A stretch of DNA of 64,000 bases, taken from positions 1 to 64,000 of IMG/VR virus record IMGVR_UViG_3300014208_000002; one strand, given 5' to 3'. A program made the translations under genes and the position numbers. This document shows, piece after piece, positions 1,224-50,928 of this stretch (positions are counted from its first letter, which is position 1; every line of letters begins with the position of its first letter). The notes below the pieces were generated by a model. The model worked only from the letters and a program-made list of their open reading frames with translations, had not been told where the DNA came from and did no database searches. Source of the stretch: a virus (lineage: Duplodnaviria; Caudoviricetes).

Positions 1224-1231
1224 TACTAATA
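1224..1231 (+). promoter_or_regulatory. candidate late promoter TACTAATA
   Basis: Intergenic copy of the recurring motif, 15 nt before ATG 1247. Confidence 0.65.
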
Positions 1232-1246
1232 GAAAAGGAGCATATT

Positions 1247-1618
1247 ATGAATAAGAGATATTTAGTTAAAGAAGAAACAAAGATTCCTGGAACAGATATA
1301 ATTCTTGAATCTGGAGATAGCTTTGAAGTGTTAGAGGAAAGCACACGAATATTTGATAAATATATTAACCCCTCTTTAAATAATCTTTTTGCTCATCCGA
1401 CGAATTGGATAAATAAATTAACCCTTCTTCTAAACGAAATTGATTTAGCTCTCCATGATGCGATAGAAGATAAAGAAACAATAAAGAAAGTAAAGAGTAA
1501 ATTTATTCTATTGCTCCGAGAGAATCTTAAAAATGAAATGCGAAATCCGGGGCTTGGAACTGAAATTGATACCCCTGCTTCAAGAGGTTATGGCGACAAT
1601 GTTCAAGTCTATCGATAA
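1247..1618 (+). CDS. hypothetical protein sharing a short module with 674..1219
   Basis: RYLVKEETKIPGTDIILESGDSFEVLEE resembles KIIVKKAVRVEGYILEAGDILILKE; AAGGAG RBS. Confidence 0.7.
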   Translation: MNKRYLVKEETKIPGTDIILESGDSFEVLEESTRIFDKYINPSLNNLFAHPTNWINKLTLLLNEIDLALHDAIEDKETIKKVKSKFILLLRENLKNEMRNPGLGTEIDTPASRGYGDNVQVYR

Positions 1619-1628
1619 GGAATAATAG

Positions 1629-2363
1629 ATGCCCAGTTTTTTTTCATACGACACAGCTTTCATAAATTCTTTTTATGCTATGGATATTGCTATAGAGAAC
1701 TATCTAAAAGAGTGGATATTTCCTAACGAGACTAATTTATCTCGGATAGAATATGCCAGCAACGAATATACTTTCCGCCAAAGAACAGCCAACAATAACG
1801 GCGTATTAAATCTTCCCTATATTAACTACCATGTTAAAGCTGGAGGGATAACTTACAACAATGATTTTAATTGGCGTAATTTCTCTGCTTATAATACTGG
1901 GATATTTGTAGATGAGCTTGGTAAAAATATTCAACTCATGCCAATTAGTGTAGATTATGAATGTACCTTTTGGTGTACTCGGGATGATGAAGCAAAATAC
2001 ATAAATAGTAAAGTTATTCATAATTTAGGAACTACCAGAACACCGCTTCCCTTTTCTGTAATGGTAAAAACTACCGAAATTCCATTATTCAATCGTCTTG
2101 TTTTTGATATGTCAGAAATAGATGGGCAGTATACAGAACGGGATTGGCTTGAAAGAAATAAAATTCATAGTGTAACTATGGATTTTCATGTTATGGGTTT
2201 TGCTCTACAAACAACTGCTGATGCTGATGACCCTGTTCTTCCTACCAGTATAATTTACGAATTTACCACAGCCCATGAAATAGATGAGGCATATACAGAG
2301 GCAGAAAGATACACTTTTATTATAGATCGTTTTAATGAGACTGTAACACCGGAAACCCCTTAG
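1629..2363 (+). CDS. probable tail completion / sheath-stabilising protein (T4 gp15-like position)
   Basis: 244 aa; LPYINYH and PISVDYECTFW segments typical of tail-terminator-like proteins; lies upstream of the sheath gene. Confidence 0.5.
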   Translation: MPSFFSYDTAFINSFYAMDIAIENYLKEWIFPNETNLSRIEYASNEYTFRQRTANNNGVLNLPYINYHVKAGGITYNNDFNWRNFSAYNTGIFVDELGKNIQLMPISVDYECTFWCTRDDEAKYINSKVIHNLGTTRTPLPFSVMVKTTEIPLFNRLVFDMSEIDGQYTERDWLERNKIHSVTMDFHVMGFALQTTADADDPVLPTSIIYEFTTAHEIDEAYTEAERYTFIIDRFNETVTPETP

Positions 2364-2375
2364 AGATTAAAAAGC

Positions 2376-2383
2376 TACTAATA
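2376..2383 (+). promoter_or_regulatory. candidate late promoter (C)TACTAATA
   Basis: Intergenic motif copy upstream of ATG 2402. Confidence 0.65.
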
Positions 2384-2401
2384 TATAGAAAGGAAGATTT
2401 T

Positions 2402-3178
2402 ATGAGTATAGGCATTTATAAAATAACAAATCTTCTCAATAATAAGGTCTATATTGGACAGTCTTGGAACATAGAAAAAAGATGGATAAATCATAAATGT
2501 AGTAAAACAAAAGACTATTTTTCTAGGGCCTTAAAAAAATATGGAACAGATAATTTTACTTTTGAAATTATTAGGGAAATAAAAGAAGGAAAATTAACCC
2601 AAATTCTTTTAGATTGTTTGGAAGAAAAATATATTAAGCAATTTAATAGTATAGATAGATCAAAAGGATACAACCTAAGAACAGGTGGAAATGGGGGAGG
2701 AAAACACTCTTCTGAGACAAAAAATCTTCTGTCCAGAATAAATTATGAAAGATTTTCTAATCCAAAAGAAATTGAAAAATTACGAAAGGCACATATTGGA
2801 AAAAAACAGTCTTTAATTACTATTGAAAAAAGAAAAAAAGCATTAAAAGGCAGAATCGTTTCAGATAAGACTAGAAAAAAAATATCAAAAAGTAACACTG
2901 GAAAAGTTTGTTCTGAGGAAGCAAAGGAAAAAAATAGACTTTGGCATTTAGGAAAAAAACCAACTAAAGAATCTAAAGAGAAAGCGGCTAAAATCCACTG
3001 TAAAAAAGTTAGATGTATAGAAACGGGCATTATTTATGATTCTATTGGAAAAGCTTGTTTAGAATCGGGAGCAAATAGAGATGGAATTGGTCTTTGCTGT
3101 AAAGGAAAAATAAAAACTTCTGGAAAGTTACATTGGGAATTTTATAATAGTCCTACTAATAAAGAAGAAGAGGTATAA
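2402..3178 (+). mobile_element. free-standing GIY-YIG homing endonuclease with NUMOD3-like repeats and NUMOD1-type HTH
   Basis: GIYKITNLLNNKVYIGQS...R; repeated H/K-S-x-E-T-K/R-x-K motifs; C-terminal KKVRCIETGIIYDSIGKA...CCKGK. Confidence 0.9.
3154..3161 (+). promoter_or_regulatory. candidate late promoter (C)TACTAATA for the sheath gene, inside the endonuclease 3' end
   Basis: Motif copy 20 nt before ATG 3182. Confidence 0.6.
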
Positions 3179-3181
3179 ATT

Positions 3182-5062
3182 ATGTCAAGCTATCGCATAA
3201 ATGTAAATTTGATAGATCAGTCACAAGTAGCAATTGGAGATAGTACAGTAACAGGAGCCATGGTTATTAAGGCTTCTAAAGGCCCAAAAACCCCTATTTA
3301 TATAAATAAAGGGGATACCAATAGACTTATTAGTCTTTATGGTGCGCCTTCTGTAACCCCCACTACTTCCTATACAGATATTTGGGAAGCCATTCAGTTT
3401 AATAATCAAGAAGGGCTTTGGGTTTGTTCCCCTTACGATGTCGCCGCCGATACTCATGGTGGTGTAATGGTAACGGCTTATGGTACAGCCAGTTTAACCG
3501 CAGGGCGATTGGATTCAGCTATTGCAACTCCTGATTTTACTGACGCTCTTCATGCGTGGGATACAGAAACAGTAGGATATGGAAATGCTTCTGATACAGT
3601 ATTTACTCTAACTTTAGCAAATACCCCAATATCAGTGATGACTGCTTCTTATATTAAACTTTATATTGCCGGAGTTGAACAAGCTACTCTTACCATTGCT
3701 GGTGCGGCTCCATATACAATTGCTTTGGCTGGTGTATTAGATGGAACAAACTCTACTCTTAATACTACAACAAAAGCCCTTTCTCTTGACTTTGCTTCTG
3801 CCCCTGCCGCTGGAGTAAAAATTGAAATTAGATATGCCTCCCCTACTACTCTTGCCGCAAGTACAAATTATTTTCAAGTTCTTGCAAAGAGTCCTTATGC
3901 TGATGACCTTGCTCTAAAGGTAACTTATAACTCTTCTGGAGCATATCCCTTCTGGTATCTTGAAGTTGCTCGTCTTACTCTTGGCGCTTGGGTTATCGTA
4001 AATGAATATACAATTTCCTTTACTCCTTTAGCAAAAGACGGATTTGGAAAAAGTATTTATTATGAAGATGTCCTAGAGGATAATGATTTTATTCAAGTTT
4101 TGTATAATTCTAATTGTTCAGTTACCGGTTTTCAGAATGATACAACTTTCACTGCTTTTGACGGTGGCGCACGAACGGTTCCGGGAAGTATTACTACAGC
4201 GATGGTTGTAACTGCTTGGCAACAATTCAGGGCATATCGAACATATCCCGCACAGATTTTTATGTCACCTTTGGCTGACCCCCTCGTTGTACAGGAATTT
4301 GATACACTACGGACGACTTATCAGACCTATGCGAAGTTTATTGTTCCTCTTCCGATAGATGATGATGAAACAGAATCCATTGCTACAAAAGCTGGATACA
4401 GTATAAATGATCGTGGCCTACGGTTCTATTGGAACTGGGGTTTAAATAAGACTCAATATGGTTCTTTCTGGTCTTCTCTTGTTGGGCGCATTGGTGTAAA
4501 ACACGCTCAGATGAAAGATGTATTCTTTGGAAAAGCTCCTGCTTGGATTGATGAACAAAATCACGGTGGACAGCTTGGAACAGGTGTTGTGGAGATGATG
4601 TATGATCCTACAGAGGATGAACTACAGGCACTTGACACCGCCGGAATAAATCCTATTGTATTTGATCCTGTTTATGGCGTAATGATTATGTCTCAAAAAA
4701 CAGCACAGAATCCAGTGCTTCTAAGTGATACTTCTTATATTGGACATAGTGATGTTATTGACTATCTTTTCAATAACATGATTACAAAGGTTCTTACCTA
4801 TCAGGTTTGTAAACTAAATGATGCCCCTCATAGAAGTCTTGCAGTTACTAAGGCATATCAAATTACAGACCCGATTGTATCCTCTGGAGTTCTTGCAGAG
4901 TGTATTCATAAGTGCGATGAGTTTAATAATACTTCCGCAACTATGGCTCAAAGAAAGTTCATTTTCTCTACAGCTATTAAGGTTACACCTTTCTCTGAAA
5001 GAATTGTATTCAACCTTATTGTTACTGAACAAGGTGCAGAGCTTACACAAGTATTGGCTTAA
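3182..5062 (+). CDS. contractile tail sheath protein (T4 gp18-like)
   Basis: 626 aa; N-terminal NLIDQS and ASKGP; C-terminal GINPIVF, CDEFNNT and FSTAIKVTPFSERIVF; followed by tube genes. Confidence 0.9.
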   Translation: MSSYRINVNLIDQSQVAIGDSTVTGAMVIKASKGPKTPIYINKGDTNRLISLYGAPSVTPTTSYTDIWEAIQFNNQEGLWVCSPYDVAADTHGGVMVTAYGTASLTAGRLDSAIATPDFTDALHAWDTETVGYGNASDTVFTLTLANTPISVMTASYIKLYIAGVEQATLTIAGAAPYTIALAGVLDGTNSTLNTTTKALSLDFASAPAAGVKIEIRYASPTTLAASTNYFQVLAKSPYADDLALKVTYNSSGAYPFWYLEVARLTLGAWVIVNEYTISFTPLAKDGFGKSIYYEDVLEDNDFIQVLYNSNCSVTGFQNDTTFTAFDGGARTVPGSITTAMVVTAWQQFRAYRTYPAQIFMSPLADPLVVQEFDTLRTTYQTYAKFIVPLPIDDDETESIATKAGYSINDRGLRFYWNWGLNKTQYGSFWSSLVGRIGVKHAQMKDVFFGKAPAWIDEQNHGGQLGTGVVEMMYDPTEDELQALDTAGINPIVFDPVYGVMIMSQKTAQNPVLLSDTSYIGHSDVIDYLFNNMITKVLTYQVCKLNDAPHRSLAVTKAYQITDPIVSSGVLAECIHKCDEFNNTSATMAQRKFIFSTAIKVTPFSERIVFNLIVTEQGAELTQVLA

Positions 5063-6172: not shown

Positions 6173-6224
6173 CAAAAAAGCTCCTTCTTACTTCTACTAA
6201 TATAGAAGAACTGAAGGAGTTTTT
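6173..6224 (+). promoter_or_regulatory. hairpin sequestering the RBS of 6225, with TACTAATA (6195-6202) at its apex
   Basis: AAAAAGCTCCTTC...GAAGGAGTTTTT outer stem and CTTCTA-ctaata-TAGAAG inner stem. Confidence 0.65.
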
Positions 6225-6749
6225 ATGCCTTTGCCGGAAAACAGAGAAAATCCATTCTTCTCCGCTATTCGTACAGTAAATGCTGTACATACAAATCAAT
6301 GGGAAATAGCAATAGGAAATGAGGGAGATAATATAATATATTTTTTAGCTCGTTCTGTTGGACTCCCTTTTTGGAAATTAGAAACAGAAATGCATCCTGG
6401 AACAGGAGTAACCTATTATACGGGAATGAATCGCTCCCTAGATTTTTCTATTGAGTTTACAGAGACAGAAAATTTTAATTGTTATAAGTATTTTTTAGCA
6501 TGGCAAGATTTGATATTTAATAGATCATCTATGCTTTTTCAAGACCCTGTAGAAGATACTAAAAGATTTTTTACTATAAAATTTGTAAAAATGACGGCGG
6601 CTAATTCAAGAACATCTATAGCAACTTTTAAGCTAGTAGGTGTTTTGATTCAAGGAATGGATGAATATTCTCTTTCTTATGATTCTGGAGAACCATTAGT
6701 AACTAAAGTTAATTTTACTTGTGATAAAGTAGAGATTACTTTCCCATAA
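6225..6749 (+). CDS. tube-like baseplate/tube initiator protein (gp19/gp54 fold), diverged paralog 3
   Basis: FSIEFTETENF...FLAWQ, LSYDSGEPLVTKVNFTCD tube-family pattern. Confidence 0.7.
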   Translation: MPLPENRENPFFSAIRTVNAVHTNQWEIAIGNEGDNIIYFLARSVGLPFWKLETEMHPGTGVTYYTGMNRSLDFSIEFTETENFNCYKYFLAWQDLIFNRSSMLFQDPVEDTKRFFTIKFVKMTAANSRTSIATFKLVGVLIQGMDEYSLSYDSGEPLVTKVNFTCDKVEITFP

Positions 6750-17012: not shown

Positions 17013-17020
17013 TACTAATA
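17013..17020 (+). promoter_or_regulatory. candidate late promoter TACTAATA
   Basis: Intergenic motif copy, only 4 nt before ATG 17025. Confidence 0.5.
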
Positions 17021-17024
17021 CAAT

Positions 17025-17414
17025 ATGAATATAGCTGAAGTACCTAAAATTTATGATATTCTTTATACCGGCGAAACTTCTGGCGCATTAGCGGAGTCTT
17101 GGAATAGAGATGCTTTTATTAATTCCTTAAAAATTTGGTTAGCATCCTTTTCCGGGGAGTCTATGCACGCCCCTTCTAGGGGGGGTTATTTAACTCAATT
17201 TTTAATGAAGCCTATGTCAGAAGCAAATCTTGAGCATATGAAGGATACTATCCGAGTAGGATTAACAAATGATTTTACCCCAAAGGTAAAAGTAAGTTAT
17301 GTTCAAGTAATTCCCCACTACAAAGAAAGATTTTGGGAAGTAAATGTTTCTGTTTATTCTCCTGACTTGAAGCAACAAATAGATATGAGTGAACAATTAA
17401 GAAGTTTAGTATAA
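17025..17414 (+). CDS. baseplate wedge protein (gp25-like)
   Basis: 129 aa; GESMHAPSRGGYLTQFLMKPM...FTPKVKVSYVQV pattern, directly before the gp6-like gene. Confidence 0.75.
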   Translation: MNIAEVPKIYDILYTGETSGALAESWNRDAFINSLKIWLASFSGESMHAPSRGGYLTQFLMKPMSEANLEHMKDTIRVGLTNDFTPKVKVSYVQVIPHYKERFWEVNVSVYSPDLKQQIDMSEQLRSLV

Positions 17415-19192: not shown

Positions 19193-21901
19193 ATGGCTGA
19201 ATATAATTTAAGAAAACTCCTCCCAAAACTCATGGACATTGATCTTTGGAACGATCTTGCAGATACTTTGTCTGATGAATTAACTCTCATGAAAACGCAT
19301 ATAGATAAAAAAAGACATTTCTACGATGTAGTTTATCAAAGAGACTTGAATACCACTATTTATGTCAAAGGTCTAAACTCTTCCTATTTTGAAAATTTAG
19401 TAATATCCGGGATGAACACTTATAATACGGATAATTATACTCTTTACTGGGAAGTAACTAATTATAATGATAAACACCAAATAAATCTATACAAAGACTT
19501 TGCCAAAACCCAACTTGTTTTACAATCTCCTACTTGGATTGTTAATACTCCTGTATCTATAACTTTTGTAGAAAAGAATTCTTCGGGCTTATCAGGCACT
19601 ACAGATTTTACTTTTTATGCTGAAGACAAAGCCCGAACAAATTATATAGAATTACCATATGAAAACTTTTCTCCTCTCGTACTGATTGCCAATATGTTTG
19701 GTTTTTACCCCGACTTGTCTATTAACCCTGATATAAATTATCTTGAAAAAATAGTATACGCAATCCCTCTCTTTATTAACCAAAAAGGAATGTATTCTAA
19801 CTATGATATCATCTTCCGACTAAGCCGTCACTTAGGTGATATATTTATTCACTATTGGAATGGAACCGGTTTATTTCCCGCTATAGAGGATTACATTGAT
19901 GAACTAGAAACAAAAAGAATAGGTGGAGATTTAGGAGAGGGGATAAACTTAGCGGGCGTTAGAAACTATGATTCCTTTATCGAGGGCGACCAGTATCTTG
20001 ATACCGTACCTCCCCTAATTCTGGATGATGATGTTATGTGGTATCTTGACCAATCTTTTGCGAGACTAACTTCAAAACACTTAGGTATAGAGTTTTATAT
20101 TGGTTCATATGTAGATTCAAATATAAATAATACTTATAACTTAATTGAAAAAAGAAGTGATGTAGGAATAGGGGACGCCGCTACGGTAGCTTTTAGTTCT
20201 CTTATTGATAATATGCCTACTATCCCTCTGACTACTTTATTCTCAATCTATAATAATGGAACTAAATTAACAAGTTTGACAATTGCTCTTCCAGATATAA
20301 ATTATGATTGCGCCATTACTGCAACGGAATTAGTTAGTGGAAATTATAACACTATTACAAAAACAATAACTCTTGAGTTTGTTTCTGCCCCTATTCTTGG
20401 AGCAGTTATAGACTGTTCTTATTTACATTGTATGACAAAAGAATATATTAACTATCTTACAAATATGAGTCTCTATAATAAACGTGCAGTAGAAGTTCAG
20501 CATATTGGGGCGCAACTTTCTTTTATTATGGATATAACGGGGTATAAAGATTGTATTCTAACTGGTAGTGCTTATACTTTTCCAAACATAATGACCGACT
20601 GCGCCGTTACAACTCAATTCGTTCCTGGGGCCTCCCTATTTGATAATATAAAAGAAATTGTTCTTGGGGATGGAAATCTTTCTATTCCAGCAGTTATTTC
20701 GGGAACTCCATTATCAAGTAATGCTGTGTCTCATGCTGTTTTCTCTCAGTCAATCTCAAATGAGAATCTTAAACAATTTGGTGCAGAGCAATGGAACTCT
20801 ATAATCATTGCCGCTAATGCAAATAAAATAAAAGAAGATATAAATATTGGAGAAGCAGACGGAACACAAACTGTATTTACGGGTACATTAAGTCATACCC
20901 CTGTAAGACCTCGTTCGGTCGTTTTTAATTATGTTTTGGGGGGTTTAACAAAATCAGTTATTGATAGGTATCAAGACCCTATTGGTTTTTATACTACTAC
21001 TTTAGATGTAACAGCTTCAAAAACAGACCTCGCCGCAGTAGATAGAATTACCTCTTTTCAGTACACCCTCACAAAAACTGGTCTTATTATAACCACTATC
21101 GGCCTTACTTTTACAATAGGGGGGGTAGTTTATACAGTTTATGATTCTACTACAGATGGGGCTACTGGTGTATTTAATGGAAATATTGCTAATCCCGGCT
21201 CCGCTTTTATATCAATAGGAACAATAGACTATTCTTCCAGAGAAATTTCCCTTACCTTTACTCAAGCTACAGATTCCTTAACTCAAGTAACTTTTACCTA
21301 TTCCTATACCCAAGATGAAGTTGTTTCCTTAGATGAACAAGCTTATGCTGTAATAAATTATGATACTGGAGAATATACTTTAAATTGCTTCTATGATAAA
21401 GAAAAAACAGATGTTATATCCACCACTGCTATAAACAGCATTGTTAATTATGGTGTAGGAATTTCTTCTAGTGCAGAGCTTCAGCCAACAACATTAGAAT
21501 TATCCTTCTATCTATCAGATGGTAGTCATCTTACAGCCAAAGATGTTCAAACTATCGGCGACCCCACAACCGGATATTTTGAGGCTACCACAAATATAGC
21601 AAGTAGTAGTATAAATTACACTACTAAAGTTATAAATGTTACTTTTAATGACTACACCTCTTATTTTGAAAATGTAGAATTAACCTATACTTACCGAACA
21701 TTAAATCCCCCTGATAATGGTACTAATATAGAAGTAGAATATATTACTGAAAAAAATATAAAAATAACAGAAGTAGGAATAATGGACATATCAGATAATA
21801 TGATTGCTTATGCAACTTTCCCCCCAATAGAATTGGATGATGCGAAGTTACATACTTCTTATCAATTCTTTATTTATTATGGCGGGGCTTTTAATACTTA
21901 G
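19193..21901 (+). CDS. baseplate wedge protein (gp7/gp8-like) with several inserted beta-sandwich modules
   Basis: Follows the gp6-like gene; C-terminal ITEVGIMD...MIAYATFPPI typical of wedge/fibre-anchor domains. Confidence 0.7.
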   Translation: MAEYNLRKLLPKLMDIDLWNDLADTLSDELTLMKTHIDKKRHFYDVVYQRDLNTTIYVKGLNSSYFENLVISGMNTYNTDNYTLYWEVTNYNDKHQINLYKDFAKTQLVLQSPTWIVNTPVSITFVEKNSSGLSGTTDFTFYAEDKARTNYIELPYENFSPLVLIANMFGFYPDLSINPDINYLEKIVYAIPLFINQKGMYSNYDIIFRLSRHLGDIFIHYWNGTGLFPAIEDYIDELETKRIGGDLGEGINLAGVRNYDSFIEGDQYLDTVPPLILDDDVMWYLDQSFARLTSKHLGIEFYIGSYVDSNINNTYNLIEKRSDVGIGDAATVAFSSLIDNMPTIPLTTLFSIYNNGTKLTSLTIALPDINYDCAITATELVSGNYNTITKTITLEFVSAPILGAVIDCSYLHCMTKEYINYLTNMSLYNKRAVEVQHIGAQLSFIMDITGYKDCILTGSAYTFPNIMTDCAVTTQFVPGASLFDNIKEIVLGDGNLSIPAVISGTPLSSNAVSHAVFSQSISNENLKQFGAEQWNSIIIAANANKIKEDINIGEADGTQTVFTGTLSHTPVRPRSVVFNYVLGGLTKSVIDRYQDPIGFYTTTLDVTASKTDLAAVDRITSFQYTLTKTGLIITTIGLTFTIGGVVYTVYDSTTDGATGVFNGNIANPGSAFISIGTIDYSSREISLTFTQATDSLTQVTFTYSYTQDEVVSLDEQAYAVINYDTGEYTLNCFYDKEKTDVISTTAINSIVNYGVGISSSAELQPTTLELSFYLSDGSHLTAKDVQTIGDPTTGYFEATTNIASSSINYTTKVINVTFNDYTSYFENVELTYTYRTLNPPDNGTNIEVEYITEKNIKITEVGIMDISDNMIAYATFPPIELDDAKLHTSYQFFIYYGGAFNT

Positions 21902-25284: not shown

Positions 25285-25292
25285 TACTAATA
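25285..25292 (+). promoter_or_regulatory. candidate late promoter TACTAATA
   Basis: Intergenic motif copy 14 nt before ATG 25307. Confidence 0.65.
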
Positions 25293-28093: not shown

Positions 28094-28101
28094 TACTAAT
28101 G
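28094..28101 (+). promoter_or_regulatory. candidate late promoter TACTAATG
   Basis: Intergenic motif variant before ATG 28118. Confidence 0.5.
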
Positions 28102-28117: not shown

Positions 28118-28669
28118 ATGAATGATGTAAAGATTATAGGCTATATAGCTTGGCATGGAGGAAATCTCATCCCTGATACAAACGCTGTGGCGGATACTGT
28201 AGTAAAAAGAAATGCAACTGGCGGGGCAACGGTAACTGACTTAGAGTGTGATCGAGTATTTAATACAGGCGGCGCTGACTTTGCAGAAGGATTTAATTTT
28301 GATAAAAATGATAAGCCTCTATCTGGATTAGTTTATATTCAAACAGAAAATGGTCTTATTCCTTCTTCTAAACGGGCACAAAAAGGAACAATTGGAATAT
28401 ATTCTGATACCTATGCTCAATGTGTAAACTCCAAAGATTTAATTGACATAAATCCTAATGGGAGTAAAATTCCCATTTGTCTTGCTGGCCGAGTAAAGGT
28501 TTATGTAAAAGAAAAATTAGAAATTGGAGATGCCTTAGTCTCTGATGTTAAAGGTTTTGCTACTAAAGCCCGCTGGTATGAACGATTATTCTTCCGAGAA
28601 AGAATAATCGGAATAGTTTTTGAACCCTCAAAAGATAAAGAAATAAAAAGAATTTCTATTCTTAAATAA
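28118..28669 (+). CDS. stand-alone intramolecular-chaperone-like (Peptidase_G2-type) fibre domain
   Basis: GGADFAEGF...GIYSD...PICLAGRVKV...IGDALVS...RIIG; N-terminal WHGGN fibre motif. Confidence 0.6.
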   Translation: MNDVKIIGYIAWHGGNLIPDTNAVADTVVKRNATGGATVTDLECDRVFNTGGADFAEGFNFDKNDKPLSGLVYIQTENGLIPSSKRAQKGTIGIYSDTYAQCVNSKDLIDINPNGSKIPICLAGRVKVYVKEKLEIGDALVSDVKGFATKARWYERLFFRERIIGIVFEPSKDKEIKRISILK

Positions 28670-28691: not shown

Positions 28692-28699
28692 TACTAATA
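28692..28699 (+). promoter_or_regulatory. candidate late promoter (C)TACTAATA
   Basis: Intergenic motif copy upstream of ATG 28733. Confidence 0.65.
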
Positions 28700-37407: not shown

Positions 37408-37415
37408 TACTAACA
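37408..37415 (+). promoter_or_regulatory. candidate late promoter variant (C)TACTAACA
   Basis: Intergenic, upstream of ATG 37449. Confidence 0.55.
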
Positions 37416-37448: not shown

Positions 37449-38948
37449 ATGGACTACTATTTTAATAATTTATTTGGTGACGGGATTGGCTGGAACTTTG
37501 GCGTATCTACTTGGATTAAGAACACAAAAAAAGCATTAGAGTCTTTTGGTCTTAAAAATAAAATAGATGCAAAGTTAGCACTTTCTATTGGACTCCCCCG
37601 AGCGTTTAACCCAATACCTTCCCGATTTAATGTTTTCATGACCCTCTTTGAAACAGAGGATTTATTTGATGATGACTATGAAAAGTTAAATAAAGCCGAT
37701 GTAATTATTGTTCCTTGTCAAGCTAACCAAAAAGTATTAGAAAGAAACTTGAGAAAAGACATTCCCGTTTATGTAGCTATTGGGGGATTTGATCCTAAAA
37801 TCTTCAAATATAAAAAGAGAGAGAAAATTGACAAAGAGTTTATTTTCCTCTATGTCGGTGCGCTCAATCCCCGAAAGGGTTTTGACTTGGCGATTAAGGC
37901 GTTTAATAAATCAAAAGGATTATATCCTAAAGCAAAACTTTATATCAAGACGACTGAGGAAGGTAAAGATGGATTTGAATATAATTCCTTTGGAGATATT
38001 ATTTATGATTATCGAATACTCTCTACCAAAGAATTAGTGGATATTTACTATAAATCCCATTGTCTACTCCTCCCAAGCCACGGTGAAGGAATTGGTCTTA
38101 CTGCATTAGAAGCCGCCGCCACAGGTCTTCCTGTTATTCATACTGCATATGGTGGTACAGCAGAGTTTTTAGGTTTTCAAAATTCTCTTCCATTAAAATA
38201 TAGTCTTGAAGTAACTGAACTAACTTACCCCGGAGAACCAAAAAGAGTAAGAGCAACTAAGTGGGCAGAAGTCCACATTGATGAACTTATTTCTAAAATG
38301 GATTATGTATATGATAGATATGCACAAATAATTAAAGACTCTAAACCTTATTTATTAAATAATATAAAGCAATTCTCTTGGAAAAATTACGGAAAGAATC
38401 TTATTGCTATATTCAATAAATATAAAGAGGATATAGAACGAGCCATCCTCAAAAAAATACTTAATCTTGGTTGTGGAAATAGAAAATATCCAGGAACAGT
38501 CGGAGTGGATATTCGTAAAGATGTTGGCGCAGATATTGTATGGGACTTATCTAAGACTCCTTATAAGTTTGCTAAGGATGAATCATTTGATGAAGTAATT
38601 ATAATAAATACTCTTGAACACTTACTTGATCCCCTTCCCTTCATGAAAGAGGCTTATAGGATTTTGAAAACTGATGGACTACTTCATATACAGGTTCCTT
38701 ACTGGCGTTCAGAAAACTTTTTTATTGATCCAACTCATCATCATGCGTATCATGAACTGTCTATGGATTTTTTTGATCGGACTACTTTTCACGGAGGACT
38801 AAATAATTATATTCCCGTTAATTTCCGTATACTAAATAGACAGGTACTAGAGACTGGAGACATTTATTTTATTCTTCAAAAGAAATGTTATAATGATTTA
38901 GGAACTTGTGCTTGTTTAAATGGGGGTGGCTGTGACTGCAAAAAATAA
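37449..38948 (+). CDS. GT4-family glycosyltransferase fused to a class I SAM methyltransferase domain
   Basis: FLYVGALNPRKGFDL, PSHGEGIGLTALEAAATGLPVI; then ILNLGCG, GVDI, NTLEHL, GLLHIQVPY. Confidence 0.85.
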   Translation: MDYYFNNLFGDGIGWNFGVSTWIKNTKKALESFGLKNKIDAKLALSIGLPRAFNPIPSRFNVFMTLFETEDLFDDDYEKLNKADVIIVPCQANQKVLERNLRKDIPVYVAIGGFDPKIFKYKKREKIDKEFIFLYVGALNPRKGFDLAIKAFNKSKGLYPKAKLYIKTTEEGKDGFEYNSFGDIIYDYRILSTKELVDIYYKSHCLLLPSHGEGIGLTALEAAATGLPVIHTAYGGTAEFLGFQNSLPLKYSLEVTELTYPGEPKRVRATKWAEVHIDELISKMDYVYDRYAQIIKDSKPYLLNNIKQFSWKNYGKNLIAIFNKYKEDIERAILKKILNLGCGNRKYPGTVGVDIRKDVGADIVWDLSKTPYKFAKDESFDEVIIINTLEHLLDPLPFMKEAYRILKTDGLLHIQVPYWRSENFFIDPTHHHAYHELSMDFFDRTTFHGGLNNYIPVNFRILNRQVLETGDIYFILQKKCYNDLGTCACLNGGGCDCKK

Positions 38949-41688: not shown

Positions 41689-41696
41689 TACTAACA
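41689..41696 (+). promoter_or_regulatory. candidate late promoter variant (C)TACTAACA
   Basis: Intergenic, upstream of ATG 41726. Confidence 0.55.
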
Positions 41697-41725: not shown

Positions 41726-42643
41726 ATGGCAAGTAATACAACGGTCGTCCTCAGCGGGGGAATTGGAAAATGTGTAGCGTTCACAGCGGCAATCCCAAAG
41801 ATGGTAAAGAAATATGGTCCTATCACAATTATGTCCCCTTGGCCCGATTTGTTTACAGACCTTGAAGGTGTGTATCGTTCTATTAGTTTCGGCGTGGAAT
41901 ATGGCTACGAGTACTTTCAAGGAAAGAATCGCCTTTCACCCGAACCCTACAACCGCAATGACTTTTTTCAAAAGAAGATTCATTTGATTGACGGCTTCAT
42001 GAAAGAGTGCGGATTAGAAGAAAACTATGATTCATTAACTGATCTTCCTCTTGCCCCGTCCTTTCTTGATATAAATTCAAAGAATAAAATTGATGCTATT
42101 CGCCAAAATGGAAAGTATATCGTAGTACAGTTTATGGGTGGAAATCAGGCTCAAAATGGTAAGATGAATGATAAGTTTATGGCAAAGGATTACCCTCCTC
42201 AGCTTATTGAAAATTTGATTATTGCTATTGGAAAGAAATATGGTAGTAAAATCCAGATTGTCAATTATGGGCTTCCTTTTGAATTTAATATTGCAAATAC
42301 CATTTCTGCGGCAGACTTGCCCTATACTGCGGCGGCTTATTTATTGAAGAACTCTGAAACTTTTATTGCAATAGACTCTAATCTTCAGCATTTCTCTGCT
42401 TGCAAAGGAGTAGAGAAGAAGGGCATAGTCCTTTGGGCGGCAACGGACCCAATAAACTTTGGATATCCTCATAATATAAACCTCTCGGCAGAGTGCCCAT
42501 ATAATGACCTTCATTGCAACAGACCCTATTTTCAGCATACCTCTGATATAGTTGGTAAGGGCATTCCTTGGTCTTGTAAGACAAAAGATTGTCTAAATAT
42601 TTCCCCAGAGAAAGTTCTCTCCGAATTAGAAAAGATTATTTAA
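41726..42643 (+). CDS. GT9-like (heptosyltransferase-like) glycosyltransferase
   Basis: SGGIGKCVAFTAAIP; IAIDSNLQHFSA...GIVLWAATDP..FGYPHN. Confidence 0.7.
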   Translation: MASNTTVVLSGGIGKCVAFTAAIPKMVKKYGPITIMSPWPDLFTDLEGVYRSISFGVEYGYEYFQGKNRLSPEPYNRNDFFQKKIHLIDGFMKECGLEENYDSLTDLPLAPSFLDINSKNKIDAIRQNGKYIVVQFMGGNQAQNGKMNDKFMAKDYPPQLIENLIIAIGKKYGSKIQIVNYGLPFEFNIANTISAADLPYTAAAYLLKNSETFIAIDSNLQHFSACKGVEKKGIVLWAATDPINFGYPHNINLSAECPYNDLHCNRPYFQHTSDIVGKGIPWSCKTKDCLNISPEKVLSELEKII

Positions 42644-42660: not shown

Positions 42661-42704
42661 AAAGACTCGGAAGCTACTAATACAGTAGAATCCGAGTCTT
42701 TTTT
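42661..42704 (+). terminator. long hairpin plus T6 tract with TACTAATA (42675-42682) at its apex
   Basis: AAAGACTCGGA...TCCGAGTCTTT perfect 11-bp arms, inner CTACT-aatac-AGTAG stem. Confidence 0.7.
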
Positions 42705-42719
42705 ATTAGGGAAGATATA

Positions 42720-45425
42720 ATGGGAACAACTAATTACGGTACACAGACTACTACTTTTAAGTATAAGCAAGCGGCGTTATCCTCTACTTTCAATGCTTTA
42801 AATGATAGCCTTATTCCTACTGGGATATATTCCGGTGGGTTGCTATCCCGTGTATCTGATGGTTCTATACAAGTAGCCCCCCTTACTTGTTATATAAAAG
42901 ATACTACACCCAATTCCAATATTTCTCGAAGAGTACAGACAACATCGGCAGTTAGTATTGTTGGATTTACTTCCACCGATTGCTATTGTGTTTTAAGATA
43001 CTCTTGGGTTGCTTCTGAAACAGATTATATGGATATTTTAGCAGTAGACTATAATACTCTTTTTGCTACTGAAACTACATTAAATCAAGGTTATTTACTT
43101 TTAGGAAAAGCAATTTATGAAGGCGCTACTATGCTTTCTTATTTTGATTATACTTTCCGATCAGATGCCTCATTACAAGAGATAGAAGACGAAAAAAATA
43201 GTTTTTATGTAAAACCCTATAATGATCCTACTATACGCCGTATCTATGTTTATCCAGGAAAAGCCGTAGTAAATGGAAAATATATTGATTTTTCGGGAGA
43301 CACTTATCCCTCTGCCCCTAGTACCTTCGATAACACTACTCTTGGACGAATAGATGTAATTTATGTAGACGCCACGGGAACAATAAAAAAAGTTTCTTCA
43401 ACTGACCAAACATTAACAATAACGTATCCTTTAAATTTTAATACCTTTGAATCAGAAAATCCTGGAGCTATCCCTGATTTCCCAACAGACGGAATGGTTG
43501 TCGCTATTATTATTCGTGGTTTAACCCGAAATACAATTGAGGGAAGAGATATAATTCAAATTGAATATGAACGAAATAGTTTTACTGGCGCAGAAAATGA
43601 TATTACTTTTAAGGGCTGTGCTATTTTTGAACAAAATGTTCAAGTAGCTGGAAATCTTCATGTTCAAGGAAATATGATTATTGATGAAGGAACAATTACA
43701 GAATATGAAGATAATATAATAACACTCAATAAGCCCCCTACAGGATGTGCTTCACTCTATTCTACTTCAGGAATTGATTTTTATCAGGGTGGTCCAGCGT
43801 GTTGTACAACAGGATTTGGGCCTAATGATGCTCAGTTTCTATATGACTGTACTGTAGGATATTTCAAAGCGGGGGTAATGGATTGTTTTACTCCTCATCT
43901 TCAAAGAGTGGTAACCCAACAGCTTATTCCACAAGTATATGGTGTTCCTTTCTGGAGCGGAACAAAAGTTCCTAACTCAGATAGCATATTAGAATATGAC
44001 CAATTTTTTACTTTTAATAACGCTTGCAGTGCGAATAAAATTCTAAATATTGGAAATGTTACTTGTTCTGCCCCTGCTGATGTAAGAATATCCGGTGGAA
44101 TGACTATTGGACAATGCGCTCCAGGCGACTTTGATGTAAATATAAATCAATTTATTGTAAATGAAACTTCTGTCTTTAATAATAATGTAACAATAAAATG
44201 TGGATGCTCTATTCTATACCGAGAGCATGGGGTTCCTGAAGAATCTTTGGACACCCGCTATCTAAGAGCTTCAGCTTCAACTTATAATGTTGTTACACTA
44301 AATGATTTTTATATTGGAAATGGCTCAACTTCACAAAAAAGATTATTTGTCTATTTGAATGATGGTAGTGGTTGTGTTAATGCTACTCCTTTAGCACTTG
44401 AAGATGCATTCCTTTTTAAGAAATGTTGGGGGAGTGCTTTACCTGGATATATTCAACAATCTATTGAAACAAGTCTAATTATTTGCTGTGGTAAAACTCT
44501 TACTTATATGGGTGATGAATTAGATCAAAGGCATGTTAGAACCAACTATACTGCTATTGAGGGAAATACCCCGGCATTGGCTGTTACTATGTGGGGTGAC
44601 TATACCATTAAACAGGCGGGAAGTAATAATGCTTGTTTAAATATTCAGGGTACTCTTCGGTCTGGATTGTATAATACTTCTTGTTATCATTTACTTGCTA
44701 CTGAGGGTGGAACATTTACTTGGAATGGATGTAATATTATTTATGAAAATGGCTGTTCAGGAGCTTGTTGGAACGCCTTTGTTTCTCATGCTCAATATGC
44801 TTTACAAACTTGTGGAAACTCTACTACAGCCTCTAATTTTAATACTAATCGTTGCGCTCAAATAAATGGTGTAGGTGGAAGCTGTGCTTATTCTATCTGT
44901 GCTACAGGAGACTATGTTTGGGATATTTCCGCAGTAAAAATTAACCTTGCTACTTGCTCACAATATCTATATAGTTGCACTACACTAATTCCTCATGCAA
45001 AAATAGTTACAACAGATGGAACGGGAGGAACAACAAACTTAGCTACTACTCCTGTAGGAAATGCAGACATGGTAGATGGATATCACGCTAGTAGTAGTGC
45101 TACAGGTAATACCGTTGCTGTTAGAGATGGGGGAGGAATACTTCATGCTTATGGATTCAATGTTGTTTCCAAGAGAGCTTTGAAGGAAAATATAAAAGTA
45201 TTTAATAAATCTGCCCTTGGGTTAGTAAAAACGGTTGAAGTAGTAGAATACAATTATATTCTTGATCCAGAAAAATCATCTAAAATAGGGTTTATTGCAG
45301 ATGATACCAGAGAAGAATTTTCCACTTCCTGTCATAATACAATGGATGTTACTTCTTCCATTGGAATTTTATTAAAGGCCGTTCAAGAACTTGATAAAAA
45401 GATTTCTTGTTTGGAGAATAAGTAA
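42720..45425 (+). CDS. long tail fibre with C-terminal peptidase S74 intramolecular chaperone; Cys-rich distal two-thirds
   Basis: N-terminus paralogous to 21913 (FKYK...LIPTGIYS; GRIDVIYVD); NADMVDGYHAS; VSKRALKENIK...IGFIADD...AVQEL. Confidence 0.85.
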   Translation: MGTTNYGTQTTTFKYKQAALSSTFNALNDSLIPTGIYSGGLLSRVSDGSIQVAPLTCYIKDTTPNSNISRRVQTTSAVSIVGFTSTDCYCVLRYSWVASETDYMDILAVDYNTLFATETTLNQGYLLLGKAIYEGATMLSYFDYTFRSDASLQEIEDEKNSFYVKPYNDPTIRRIYVYPGKAVVNGKYIDFSGDTYPSAPSTFDNTTLGRIDVIYVDATGTIKKVSSTDQTLTITYPLNFNTFESENPGAIPDFPTDGMVVAIIIRGLTRNTIEGRDIIQIEYERNSFTGAENDITFKGCAIFEQNVQVAGNLHVQGNMIIDEGTITEYEDNIITLNKPPTGCASLYSTSGIDFYQGGPACCTTGFGPNDAQFLYDCTVGYFKAGVMDCFTPHLQRVVTQQLIPQVYGVPFWSGTKVPNSDSILEYDQFFTFNNACSANKILNIGNVTCSAPADVRISGGMTIGQCAPGDFDVNINQFIVNETSVFNNNVTIKCGCSILYREHGVPEESLDTRYLRASASTYNVVTLNDFYIGNGSTSQKRLFVYLNDGSGCVNATPLALEDAFLFKKCWGSALPGYIQQSIETSLIICCGKTLTYMGDELDQRHVRTNYTAIEGNTPALAVTMWGDYTIKQAGSNNACLNIQGTLRSGLYNTSCYHLLATEGGTFTWNGCNIIYENGCSGACWNAFVSHAQYALQTCGNSTTASNFNTNRCAQINGVGGSCAYSICATGDYVWDISAVKINLATCSQYLYSCTTLIPHAKIVTTDGTGGTTNLATTPVGNADMVDGYHASSSATGNTVAVRDGGGILHAYGFNVVSKRALKENIKVFNKSALGLVKTVEVVEYNYILDPEKSSKIGFIADDTREEFSTSCHNTMDVTSSIGILLKAVQELDKKISCLENK

Positions 45426-46533: not shown

Positions 46534-47097
46534 ATGGGTTTTAGATTATCAAAAGAAGGATCAAAAAGATTTCCTTTGGGTGCAGAAATAGAAGGAATCT
46601 ATGGAAAAATAGACAAACTCATTTATGATGCTCAAGAAGAAACTTGGCAAGCAACTGTCATTTATTATATAAACGAACAAGCGGCAGAGAGAGCAAGGTT
46701 AATAAATTATTTAAGACAAACTTTTTTGGACTATTCAAAACCAAATAATAATCTACCTTTAGGATATGAGTTTATCCTGCGTCCTAAAAAATATTCTATA
46801 AATGAATGGGCTTTAATAATACAAACTGCTAACTCCCCTCTTCCAGCATCTATTTTTTCTTTTAAATACGGAGTATTAACAAAAATAATCGGTCCTATTG
46901 AATTAAAAAAAGCAAATGTTGTGGGAAAAATTTACAAAGACTTTATGGAACAATGCGAACCGGGGTCAGAATCTATATTAGAAGATCGGCCTATGGAGGG
47001 GATAAATGGTGTTCTAACGGAGCTTCTTCTCACTGTAAAAAAAGACAAACCAGTAAAAGAAGAGACAAATATTACTACTAATATAACGAACGGATAA
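46534..47097 (+). CDS. hypothetical protein
   Basis: 187-aa ORF with AAGGAG RBS. Confidence 0.7.
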   Translation: MGFRLSKEGSKRFPLGAEIEGIYGKIDKLIYDAQEETWQATVIYYINEQAAERARLINYLRQTFLDYSKPNNNLPLGYEFILRPKKYSINEWALIIQTANSPLPASIFSFKYGVLTKIIGPIELKKANVVGKIYKDFMEQCEPGSESILEDRPMEGINGVLTELLLTVKKDKPVKEETNITTNITNG

Positions 47098-47124: not shown

Positions 47125-47508
47125 ATGAAGGTGTTTATTGGAGACATTGTAGGTGCTAAAGATGTATTCGCAAAGCTTATTCAGCTTGAATTTGGTGCAA
47201 AGACCGCACTAAAACTCATGCTCATTACCAATGAAATGCAACGGTATTTAGAGTCTTATGAAAAGACAAGAATCTCTCTTGTAAAGAAGTATGGACAAGA
47301 GGATGAAGCGGGACAGATTATTGTCAAGGCAGGAACAGAAGAATATGGAAAGTTCATTGATGAAATCAATTCTATCTCTACTGAAGCAGTTGAATTAAAT
47401 GTTCCTGAATTGACTCAAGATGAGTTGACAAAAGATGATTCTATTAAGTTCTCTGCGCTTGACCTGTTAAAGATTATGCCATTCTTGAAAAAGGATGATA
47501 CAATTTAA
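47125..47508 (+). CDS. conserved helical phage protein (DUF1617-like)
   Basis: LKLMLITNEMQRYLESYEKTRISLVKKYGQEDEAGQI pattern. Confidence 0.55.
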   Translation: MKVFIGDIVGAKDVFAKLIQLEFGAKTALKLMLITNEMQRYLESYEKTRISLVKKYGQEDEAGQIIVKAGTEEYGKFIDEINSISTEAVELNVPELTQDELTKDDSIKFSALDLLKIMPFLKKDDTI

Positions 47509-47600
47509 AAATGTGGTTTAATTTATTTAATAATAATGTAAAAAAGTTTTTTTTCTTTCCAAAGATTAAATTAGAAAATAAAAAGGAGGAGGAAGTTATT

Positions 47601-48209
47601 ATGGAAAATACATTATCTTTTGATTCTCTTCCTGTTATTGATGATTTTCTAACAATAAATAAATATAGTAGACCCGGTAGAAAGCGTCCTGAGACTCTTG
47701 CTGTTGTACTTCATTGGACAGCGAATCCAAACGCAAGTGCAAAAGCTAACCGTGACTTTTTTGAAAGTAAAAAAGATGGAAAAACAAGTTATGGTTCTAC
47801 AGAGTATATTGTAGGGTTAAAAGGTGAAATTATTCGATGTATGCCTGATGAAGAAATTTCATATAATTGTGGAACCTCTTCTGTCGATCCTATATCTGGA
47901 AAGATTTATACTGATTATGCAAGAGAAAAGTTTGGAAAGTATGTTTTAAGACCGGATATAGAATCTCCAAATAGCTGTACTGTAGCAATTGAAATGTGTC
48001 CTATTGATTGGAAAGGAAATTTTAAACCTGAAACATGGGAAAGTACAAAGAAGTTAGTTGTTTGTCTATTAAAAAAATATAATCTAGGTTTGAATGATAT
48101 TACTACGCACGAAAAAATTGTAGGATATAAGTTCTGTCCTCAATTATTTCACGATCATCCTGAAGAATTTGATAGGTTTGTAAAAGAAGTCGGAGAACTT
48201 CTTGTATAG
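47601..48209 (+). CDS. N-acetylmuramoyl-L-alanine amidase (Amidase_2), endolysin
   Basis: VVLHWTAN, STEYIVG, VAIEMC, ITTHEKIVGYKFCP; strong GGAGGAGG RBS favours ATG 47601 over 47511. Confidence 0.85.
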   Translation: MENTLSFDSLPVIDDFLTINKYSRPGRKRPETLAVVLHWTANPNASAKANRDFFESKKDGKTSYGSTEYIVGLKGEIIRCMPDEEISYNCGTSSVDPISGKIYTDYAREKFGKYVLRPDIESPNSCTVAIEMCPIDWKGNFKPETWESTKKLVVCLLKKYNLGLNDITTHEKIVGYKFCPQLFHDHPEEFDRFVKEVGELLV

Positions 48210-48218
48210 GAGATTTTT

Positions 48219-48554: not shown

Positions 48555-48563
48555 GAGATTATC

Positions 48564-48896: not shown

Positions 48897-48916
48897 ATAA
48901 TAGTGGAGATAAACAA

Positions 48917-49267
48917 ATGGAAGGCGACGAAGTAAATACAAACGAAGAAACTTATGATAACCCTATTCCAATTCCACAATATCATATTGGAAAAACAGAG
49001 AAAAAGCCCACAAGCTTTTTAGATGATGGAGAAGGAAACGCCTCTTCGGGACGACTAATAAAAGTAATGGCGTTTATTCTTTCTTGTGTTGTAACAATTA
49101 CTGGGTTAACAATTGCAGGATTTTTACTATTTACTCCTAAGCCAATTGATACAACTTCTATGCTTATGGATGGCACTACCTTTGTTTCTCTTATTTTAGG
49201 TCTAGTTGGACTTCTTTCCTCTATAGCTCTTGGTGCAGAAATAACTCAGAAAATAACTAAGCAATAA
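48917..49267 (+). CDS. holin-like membrane protein
   Basis: 116 aa with two hydrophobic helices, close to the amidase; SSGRLI precedes TM1. Confidence 0.55.
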   Translation: MEGDEVNTNEETYDNPIPIPQYHIGKTEKKPTSFLDDGEGNASSGRLIKVMAFILSCVVTITGLTIAGFLLFTPKPIDTTSMLMDGTTFVSLILGLVGLLSSIALGAEITQKITKQ

Positions 49268-49281
49268 TTTGCAGTCTTCCC

Positions 49282-49289
49282 TACTAATA
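49282..49289 (+). promoter_or_regulatory. candidate late promoter (C)TACTAATA
   Basis: Intergenic motif copy before TTG 49313. Confidence 0.6.
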
Positions 49290-49312
49290 CATTATATAAA
49301 AGTTTCTCAATT

Positions 49313-50185
49313 TTGGGGGATACTGTGTTTTCAAACTTCAACTGGTGGCAATTAGCAATAACTTTTTCTGTAATTACTCTTTGTATAATAAGTATAATTA
49401 TTGCATTAAAAAAAACAAAAACTTCTGTAAAGGTAGAAGACAGTAAGGGAAATAAAATTCAAGTAGGGGATAACTCTGATCCTCAGAAACCTACTATTGA
49501 AGCCGTTACCACTTTTGAACCCGTTCCTGAAAAAGAAGAATCTTTTATTCCAGCACAAGAAGAAATAGCGCATTTGATTCCTTATTGCGATCAAACACTT
49601 CTCGCTCTTGTAATAAAAAAATCAATTCTCTTTGGTAATAAACAAACAGAAATTTCCATGGTGCTAAAAGTTCAAGATCAAATGAACTCTGCCCAAATAA
49701 AAATAAACCTATTTAAGGGACACCTAATGAAGGTTTATCAAGATTTAATTATAGAGAAGAAAGGCAACAATGCTAATCTTTTACATGACACAGCATATAT
49801 AATTTTTTCCAGTGTAGTTCATAATCAAGCGGAACAAATACTATTAAATTTAAAACAACGATTTAGAGAAAATCATTTTACAGATAAACATGAAGAAGAA
49901 TTTGAAGAATATGTAGAAGGTTATATTTCTTTTTATATGGATGACTGGTATAGTGCTTTATCTACATTTTATCCCGCCGCTCTTGATCCATCCCGAGAAG
50001 AAATTCGTAATACTATAACAAGAAATGATGATAATATATTACGAGAATTTTTAAGAGATTGTTTTTTTCAAGCAAGAACAATCTCTATGCGTAACAAAAC
50101 TGCATTACAGCTTATGGAAGCCAAATTTGATAAAGATATTGAAGACATTATTAAAGCACATGAAACAAATAGGCTTAATATATAA
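49313..50185 (+). CDS. N-terminally anchored membrane protein (second holin/lysis-accessory candidate)
   Basis: One N-terminal TM segment, then a soluble helical domain. Confidence 0.55.
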   Translation: MGDTVFSNFNWWQLAITFSVITLCIISIIIALKKTKTSVKVEDSKGNKIQVGDNSDPQKPTIEAVTTFEPVPEKEESFIPAQEEIAHLIPYCDQTLLALVIKKSILFGNKQTEISMVLKVQDQMNSAQIKINLFKGHLMKVYQDLIIEKKGNNANLLHDTAYIIFSSVVHNQAEQILLNLKQRFRENHFTDKHEEEFEEYVEGYISFYMDDWYSALSTFYPAALDPSREEIRNTITRNDDNILREFLRDCFFQARTISMRNKTALQLMEAKFDKDIEDIIKAHETNRLNI

Positions 50186-50819
50186 TTTTCTTTACATACT
50201 CATATGTTCTCTCTGGTATTTGATTATTCTTTACAGCATTGTATCCACAGTTATAAGCCATAAATGCTTCAGGCCAATTACCAAATGTTTCGTATAAATC
50301 TTCAATATAATTCATACTTACTTGAAGATTATGTTGCCAATTAAATACATCAAAAACTTCTCCTTCGTATGAAGGAATAAAAAAGAGTAAAGCTAAATCT
50401 TTTTCATATTTTGAGTTTATCTGTCCAAGCCCTCTATCATAGGAAACTATTTTTCCTTTATAATAATTTTTTCCAACTGCCCACCAACGCCAACGAGATT
50501 CATTCCATATCATACGATAATAATAGGTAATGGGAATATTTCTTTTAACACAATTTTCATATACATAGTCTCTATATTCTTCAGGTACTAAAGTAAGATA
50601 GTAAGCATCCTGAAGGCTTATAGTAAGGGCAGGGCTTCTTGAGACATTTTTATTAGAAGGAGGAAAAACAGCACTGGAGAATATAAAAATAGAAAAAATA
50701 GGGAGAAACAAAAAAAAGAGCATTGTCTTTCGTCTTGTTTTCTTTTTTTGAATCATTATCTCCTGTTTCTTTCTGTGGCTATAGATAAAATCTTCTATAC
50801 CCTTATGATTAGTCTTCAT
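50175..50819 (-). CDS. membrane-anchored lytic transglycosylase (SLT family)
   Basis: TM FFLFLPIFSIFIF; IWNESRW catalytic ES, GLGQIN, AFMAYNCG, TYEYVKKI. Confidence 0.85.
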   Translation of the reverse strand: MKTNHKGIEDFIYSHRKKQEIMIQKKKTRRKTMLFFLFLPIFSIFIFSSAVFPPSNKNVSRSPALTISLQDAYYLTLVPEEYRDYVYENCVKRNIPITYYYRMIWNESRWRWWAVGKNYYKGKIVSYDRGLGQINSKYEKDLALLFFIPSYEGEVFDVFNWQHNLQVSMNYIEDLYETFGNWPEAFMAYNCGYNAVKNNQIPERTYEYVKKIIY

Positions 50820-50928
50820 GGAAAACTCCTTTAGATAGACTAATTTTTAAATATTGGGGATAGGCTTTGGTTGTAGGTAGGAAATATCCTATATACAATT
50901 AGTACCTCTTTTTCATAAAAGCTAAATA

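Follow-up and report, generated by a model that had tools for sequence, protein, structure and literature searches.

A recurring TACTAATA box as putative late promoter, and a two-domain sigma factor as its candidate reader, in an uncultured phage with T4-type virion genes

Introduction

The first 64 kb (positions 1 to 64,000; hereafter the window) of the IMG/VR virus record IMGVR_UViG_3300014208_000002 (Duplodnaviria; Caudoviricetes) carry a recurring octamer, TACTAA(T/C)(A/G), a short distance in front of late-class genes, which raises the question of whether this box is a late promoter and, if so, what reads it. An earlier inspection of the letters (the sequence-only reading) had taken it for a single-box promoter resembling that of T4 but with a different consensus, lacking a -35 element and served by a phage sigma factor encoded elsewhere. 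From an analysis of the whole 200,726-bp record, which has direct terminal repeats and 34.7% G+C, and of its relatives, we conclude that TACTAATA almost certainly serves this phage lineage as its late promoter. The probable reader is a sigma factor that the phage itself encodes and that is not of the T4 type.

The phage encodes distantly T4-like virion proteins (sheath, tail tube, gp6-type wedge and Gp23-type capsid) as well as rIIA and rIIB, and its replicative polymerase belongs to family A, in contrast to the family B enzyme of T4. Structural, packaging and lysis genes fill the plus strand from approximately 142 kb to the end of the record and onward from position 1 to 50 kb, apart from an array of short open reading frames (ORFs) at 181-191 kb; genes for replication and nucleotide functions, together with small genes of unknown function, lie in a minus-strand block at 50-123 kb and on the plus strand at 123-142 kb. 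A megablast search against cultured phages gave no match, their structural proteins being at most 22-29% identical, and tblastn gave no sigma factor. Our literature search found no paper tying TACTAATA to a phage promoter.

Results

Enrichment, orientation and gene context of the box

The window contains 25 copies of TACTAAYR against 13.6 +/- 4.0 in dinucleotide shuffles, none of 100 of which reached 25, and across the whole genome TACTAATA is the top 8-mer in the 70 nucleotides (nt) before genes, Shine-Dalgarno words aside, which bears out the enrichment expected of a promoter motif. Counting both strands, 30 of the 44 TACTAATA copies lie in sense orientation no more than 70 nt upstream of a start (2.3 expected, p=3e-28), and 43 of the 44 point in the same direction as the local genes, as compared with 14 copies with and 29 against for the reversed word. 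Antisense TACTAAYR occurs four times in the window, always as a G- or C-variant. An active promoter would be expected to produce such a bias against antisense copies. Beyond TTGACA/TATAAT promoters of the host type, the genome showed no other motif class of comparable strength.

The proposed preference for late genes also held, a box being present within 100 nt before 30 of 116 late-class genes versus 9 of 188 early-class genes (odds ratio 6.9, p=2e-7). Window genes with a box in front include those for the sheath, a tail-tube paralogue, fibres and a glycosylation cluster, as well as the genes ahead of the wedge and the amidase; outside the window it precedes the capsid gene, the gene ahead of the large terminase and further head-region genes. 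Clear intergenic boxes also occur in the minus-strand early block, before two HNH endonucleases and one phosphoesterase. The plus-strand array at 181-191 kb contains a single copy, inside an ORF, indicating that the box is not simply a feature of the plus strand. Perfect TTGACA-17-TATAAT promoters were identified at 78374, 93652, 100815 and 181205, all before early-class genes. Matches of the sigma70 type in the 36-52 kb region show no excess (67 vs 64 +/- 7 in shuffles), and at a lax threshold the difference between gene classes in sigma70-type promoters is not significant; the four perfect sites alone are informative. We rejected the box itself as a promoter of the host primary sigma (TTGACA, 17-nt spacer, TATAAT), as it has no -35 element and its equivalent of the -10 hexamer is TACTAA.

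Box anatomy and predicted transcription start

A logo of 40 sites from this genome consists of a pyrimidine (C in 23, T in 13) followed by TACTAATA, with nothing conserved upstream. Sites were also pooled across genomes into groups of 95, 30 and 17, and the 95 sites of this phage and three relatives reveal a weak downstream extension, T-A-A-T-A. The earlier statement that no -35 element accompanies the box was confirmed, the pooled logos of 95 and 30 sites remaining under 0.25 bits throughout -45 to -13; among the 95 sites no position exceeds 0.2 bits from -45 to -14, from which we conclude that such an element is absent.

Distances between the box and the start codon are bimodal, the shortest in this genome being 4, 4, 4, 4, 6 and 7 nt and the next 14 nt. 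Over six genomes (this phage and five relatives), the start codon falls exactly 11 nt after the A of ACTA at 22 of 137 sites (p=2e-14); distances of 8-10 and 16-17 nt do not occur, those of 12-15 nt occur ten times and those of 18-21 nt five times, and the bulk of the distribution starts at 22 nt. All six genomes contribute to the 11-nt spike, including those with ACTATATA and AACTATTA boxes, with equal spacing from ACTA. Genes at this spacing have no room for a ribosome-binding site, and their simplest reading is that they would be expressed from leaderless mRNAs beginning at the A of ATG. Two of the four genes spaced 4 nt from the box in this genome are homing endonucleases, and in one of these the GIY-YIG catalytic domain begins at residue 5, which indicates that the start codon is correct. 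The predicted leaderless late genes start 4 nt after the box at 17025 in the window and at 144690, 145411 and 166864 in the genome; those at genome positions 123553 and 195185 start 6-7 nt after it, also without a ribosome-binding site. This gene class is likewise found in all five relatives examined.

Under the leaderless reading, the box would span -12 to -5, its ACTA beginning with A at -11, and transcription would start 5 nt past the box. Of 110 leadered sites, 82 have A and 97 have a purine at this start position, and 74 have T immediately before it. Leaders would then begin at 11 nt, enough for a Shine-Dalgarno sequence and spacer, which explains the gap in the spacing distribution. An A at -11 combined with a pyrimidine-purine start would match the geometry of a sigma70-family -10 element. 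In several long leaders, at genome positions 167528, 192896 and 194532, a small hairpin and then CTAATAA come immediately ahead of the ribosome-binding site; this combination may be a second recurring leader element.

Conservation in relatives

Alignment of capsid homologues led to 23 related IMG/VR loci, while single-protein locus searches with gp6, the phage sigma factor (see below) and a 650-amino acid polymerase-like protein returned no relatives. In relatives whose capsid proteins are 51-57% identical, TACTAATA is again a top upstream 8-mer, and in three whole relative genomes 14 of 21, 17 of 24 and 26 of 51 copies are upstream (p 1e-14 to 1e-21). The box lies 140-156 nt before the capsid gene in five relatives and 152 nt here, and it forms the main island of identity in the aligned region upstream of that gene. 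With a matrix derived from three relatives alone, 32 sites were detected here, and 28 of these have a sense start codon within 160 nt. More distant relatives (44-50%) use ACTATATA (23 of 32 copies upstream, p=4e-22) or AACTATTT instead, and share ACTA core, spacing and +1 A with the closer relatives.

The capsid-gene promoters also have a second conserved block, approximately AACTTTTTAGAAAA, ending 4-6 nt before the box (locus L016, positions 1120-1145, aligned in L026, L027, L029 and L032), which is found before a box in a relative of the AACTATT type as well. This block may be an upstream enhancer element or factor-binding site specific to what would be the strongest late promoter.

A phage-encoded sigma factor

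A scan of early ORFs identified a 189-amino acid protein at 70486-71055 (-), outside the window, that matches phage sigma PHROG families. The prediction of a sigma factor encoded elsewhere was therefore correct, although the protein is a two-domain factor of the sigma70/extracytoplasmic function type and no gp55 homologue was found. A library-wide HMMER search with this protein returned 57 relatives; a profile of this family aligns in the PDB with sigma-E, sigma-H, FliA and SigA along their entire length, with values down to 1e-9, and Pfam sigma regions 2 and 4 are present in family members. Its AlphaFold model has a pLDDT (predicted local distance difference test) of 91, and the Foldseek matches are sigma factors. 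It is the sole sigma factor detectable in the genome, at one copy per genome, and the family is present in the records of 9 of 12 relatives, including all five that are at least 90% complete. We assign it to the box on the basis of this co-occurrence and the lack of any other candidate or strong motif class.

The topoisomerase II genes precede the sigma gene in this phage and in two relatives. In this genome the promoter ahead of it is of the sigma70 type and located at 74300; one relative has a promoter of that type immediately before the sigma gene. Relatives G001 (approximately 63610-63650) and G002 (approximately 104490-104530) have an nACTAATAT variant of the box before the sigma gene (CACTAATAT and GACTAATAT, respectively), which hints at positive autoregulation, unlike this genome and G005 where the sigma gene is behind a host-type promoter.

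Searches of six-frame ORFs of the genome with T4 gp55, phrog_234, phrog_12791 and our own gp55 hidden Markov model (built from more than 100 gp55 sequences, themselves from matches close to T4, and run unfiltered on all six frames) detected no gp55, and neither a T4 gp45 query nor phrog_223 detected a gp45 clamp in the six frames. A six-frame search with PF04542 also returned nothing, thereby missing the actual sigma factor, which indicates that these fast searches are not sensitive. The genome has a clamp-loader-like gene (DNA_pol3_delta2) at 56594-57751 (-), though no gp45-type or other clamp gene was detected; its 222-amino acid neighbour is MazG-like rather than a clamp.

Discussion

Proposed mechanism

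We suggest that yTACTAATA is the core of a late promoter of the -10 type, recognized by host RNA polymerase core together with the phage two-domain sigma factor, and give this reading a probability of roughly 60%. The phage sigma70-family factor (189 amino acids) would be made earlier in infection, from one operon with the topoisomerase genes under a TTGACA/TATAAT-type promoter, and would then direct the host core enzyme to a box located at about -12 to -5, with a weak t-a-a-t continuation to an A at +1 and no -35 partner. Most late transcripts would carry an 11-40 nt leader with a Shine-Dalgarno site, and about one in six would start at the A of ATG and be leaderless.

Several points weigh against this proposal. 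The promoter role, the start position, the late timing and the sigma factor as reader are all deduced from sequence, namely from the observed enrichment, orientation, anatomy, start-codon spacing and conservation of the box and from the existence and conservation of the sigma gene. The link between sigma factor and box consists of their joint presence across the lineage, and six sigma orthologues are approximately 25-40% identical, too diverged to read covariation with the box variants. A sigma factor with region 4 normally reads a -35 element, of which none is conserved here. Position -7, usually T in -10 elements, is occupied by A in this phage, and in the leadered sites of this genome alone the predicted +1 is A in 14 of 28 and a purine in 22 of 28. 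Finally, a very diverged gp55-like protein could have escaped the searches, and phrog_234, when run on the relatives, matched nowhere, control genomes included.

Comparison with known systems

The proposed resemblance to the T4 single-box promoter with a different consensus is apparent, six of eight positions being shared with TATAAATA. Both systems have a single AT-rich box of 8 bp about one helical turn before the start, here a predicted one, and no -35 element. The placement predicted here, -12 to -5, would be within one base of the T4 late box, which lies at -13 to -6 and is read by gp55 with gp33 and the gp45 clamp (Geiduschek and Kassavetis 2010, PMC2988020). The genes that follow the box are also alike. 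In T4, late promoters lie directly before endonuclease ORFs and promoters of neighbouring genes are embedded in endonuclease ORFs (PMC2988022); here, the box precedes virion genes and homing endonucleases, and the copy at 3154, inside an endonuclease ORF, would serve the sheath gene. The two systems differ at positions 3-4 (CT here, TA in T4), and neither this phage nor its relatives show upstream enrichment of the T4 consensus. Further differences are the lack of detectable gp55 and gp45 homologues, the family A polymerase, a candidate reader with sigma domains 2 and 4, and the many transcripts predicted to be leaderless.

In the SPO1 cascade, phage sigma factors (gp28; gp33/gp34) replace the host sigma on the host core polymerase and thereby switch gene classes. 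The middle and late promoters of SPO1 contain a -35 as well as a -10 element, in contrast to the one sigma factor and one box proposed here. A precedent is phiEco32, whose two-domain sigma gp36 reads a single AATGTA box centred at -11.5 (PMC12276001); phiEco32 and phage 7-11 share with the present phage a sigma70-family factor with domains 2 and 4 and, in their middle and late promoters, one element near -10 and no -35 consensus (PMC12276001, PMC8948821), and differ in consensus and in being small podoviruses as opposed to a 200-kb T4-like myovirus. T7-class systems are similar in the ACTA(A)TA-like core and in that this genome encodes a polymerase-like protein with T7 RNA polymerase-like motifs. 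They differ in the predicted start, 11 nt after the A of ACTA here and 6 in the T7 type, and in the conserved part at -17 to -8, which is missing here; T7-class promoters are conserved over approximately 17-23 bp to +1, as compared with only -13 to +1 here, with ACTA at -11 to -8.

Alternative explanations

The main alternative is that the box is a late promoter read by a factor other than the 189-amino acid sigma, be it an undetected gp55-like protein, a host alternative sigma or a host sigma that a phage appropriator redirects, in which case the phage two-domain sigma would serve another gene class. The six of eight matches to TATAAATA and the lack of a -35 element, as in gp55 promoters (PMC2988020), are consistent with this, as are the T4-like virion genes (sheath, gp6, Gp23-type capsid), the presence of rIIA and rIIB, and the many small early ORFs that are unannotated. 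We nevertheless consider it rather unlikely given the negative gp55 and gp45 searches, a polymerase of family A and not the family B of T4, and the fact that, beyond the host-type promoters, there is no comparably strong second motif class for the phage sigma to read. A role of the box in RNA, as an endonuclease processing site or a translation signal of polycistronic late mRNA, appears improbable. The box does lie on the sense strand just ahead of ribosome-binding sites, and 5' ends mapped by primer extension in T4 cannot always separate processing from initiation (PMC2988020). However, such a role would account neither for a -10-like layout, in which T occupies -1 and A occupies +1, nor for the near-complete avoidance of antisense orientation (43:1), nor for the copies that head transcription units after terminators. 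The logos reveal no conserved RNA structure alongside the box.

Least probable of all, and largely rejected, is that the box is the promoter of a phage single-subunit RNA polymerase. The candidate is the 650-amino acid protein encoded at 128459-130411 (+), whose translation contains motifs resembling those of T7 and mitochondrial RNA polymerases (DFGGRFY, LDFSSFG, R-x3-K..FG and RHDAF) and whose nearest Atlas cluster, by language-model features, carries the automatic name 'DNA-directed RNA polymerase family protein'. ACTA(A)TA also resembles the -6 to -1 part of T7-class promoters, and promoters as short as 9 nt exist for mitochondrial polymerases. However, neither Pfam nor the PDB yielded a sequence match to the protein, the records of 12 relatives contain no homologue, and according to unfiltered phmmer and motif searches it is absent from five whole genomes, three of which use the same box. 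The start geometry is also at odds with such a polymerase, transcription being predicted to begin 11 and not 6 nt after the A of ACTA, with nothing conserved from -17 to -13. The 650-amino acid protein (L014:2459-4411) has a G at the position of the steric-gate E of family A DNA polymerases, and may be a primase-like or orphan polymerase.

Implications

Recognition of a -10-only promoter by a phage sigma factor is a mechanism of a known kind. What would be new is the consensus, the sigma type in a phage with a T4-type virion, the frequent leaderless late genes and the drift of the box in relatives. A broader interpretation, which we hold only tentatively and with somewhat less assurance than an even chance would warrant, is that a widespread uncultured lineage with T4-type virions has had the gp55-gp33-clamp system replaced by a two-domain sigma whose region 4 has no DNA target, acting on a drifting -10-only box (TACTAATA, ACTATATA or AACTATTT), with about one-sixth of late transcripts leaderless. 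If so, T4-type virion modules need not be accompanied by the clamp-coupled late transcription of T4, and a conventional-looking sigma with a -10-only promoter may suffice for late transcription. The starts predicted to the base provide a testable promoter code for a lineage known only from metagenomes, with which late operons, leaderless genes and true start codons can be annotated. The box variants of sister phages, each with an orthologous sigma, would be a compact system for studying the evolution of sigma specificity and, should the broader interpretation be true, a natural series for joint change of sigma and promoter. Such sigma/box pairs could become orthogonal sigma/promoter parts.

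Box copies in the window

All 12 plus-strand copies of TACTAA(T/C)(A/G) listed by the sequence-only reading were recovered (Table 1), at 4-37 nt from box end to start codon where 4-40 nt had been claimed. As claimed, 11 of the 12 are intergenic, the exception at 3154 lying in the final codons of a GIY-YIG endonuclease gene, and "most" are preceded by C (8 of 12). The minus-strand TACTAATT at 50904-50897 is also present, 77 nt upstream of the SLT gene (50175-50819). That list had omitted the copy at 47076, which is 41 nt before the gene at 47125, and six same-sense copies inside genes. The in-gene copy at 21721 is a possible internal promoter; further sense copies inside genes are at 5738, 33825, 40533, 45437 and 48773.

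Table 1. Box copies in the window, with predicted transcription starts, position weight matrix (PWM) scores where available, and the genes that follow.
Box	Position (strand)	Predicted start	PWM score	Context
TACTAATA	1224..1231 (+)	1236		15 nt before gene 1247-1618 (unknown)
CTACTAATA	2376..2383 (+)	2388	12.0 (trained on relatives)	18 nt before GIY-YIG homing endonuclease 2402-3178
CTACTAATA	3154..3161 (+)	3166		In 3' end of endonuclease gene; 20 nt before tail sheath 3182-5062
CTACTAATA	6195..6202 (+)	6207		22 nt before tail-tube paralogue 6225-6749
TACTAATA	17013..17020 (+)	17025 (predicted leaderless mRNA)	18.5	4 nt before ATG of 17025-17414; gp6-like baseplate wedge gene next
TACTAATA, same sense, in gene	21721..21728 (+)		14.5	Inside gene 19193-21901; 184 nt before gene 21913
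TACTAATA	25285..25292 (+)	25297		14 nt before gene 25307-27265 (652 amino acids)
TACTAATG variant	28094..28101 (+)	28106		16 nt before gene 28118-28669
CTACTAATA	28692..28699 (+)	28704		33 nt before gene 28733-32572 (1279 amino acids)
CTACTAACA variant	37408..37415 (+)	37420		33 nt before glycosyltransferase/radical-SAM-like gene 37449-38948
CTACTAACA variant	41689..41696 (+)	41701		29 nt before gene 41726-42643
CTACTAATA	42675..42682 (+)	42687		37 nt before tail-fibre gene 42720-45425
CTACTAATA	47076..47083 (+)	47088		In last codons of 46534-47097; before 47125-47508 and amidase 47511-48209
CTACTAATA	49282..49289 (+)	49294		23 nt before gene 49313-50185
TACTAATT, one-mismatch variant	50897..50904 (-)			Just past bidirectional terminator, before SLT transglycosylase gene; function uncertain

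The bidirectional terminator next to the minus-strand variant, at 50928-50958, consists of an inverted repeat, rich in G+C, that has T runs on either strand, and sits between the rIIB-like gene (50980-51933) and the minus-strand SLT gene. The box at 42675 lies at the tip of a hairpin (42661-42706; -28.5 kcal/mol, z=-6.9) that is followed by a T run, and these two features mark it as a terminator of the upstream gene. The predicted start at 42687 falls in the 3' arm, and a transcript from this position is predicted to be without the 5' arm of the hairpin and to read into the tail-fibre gene.

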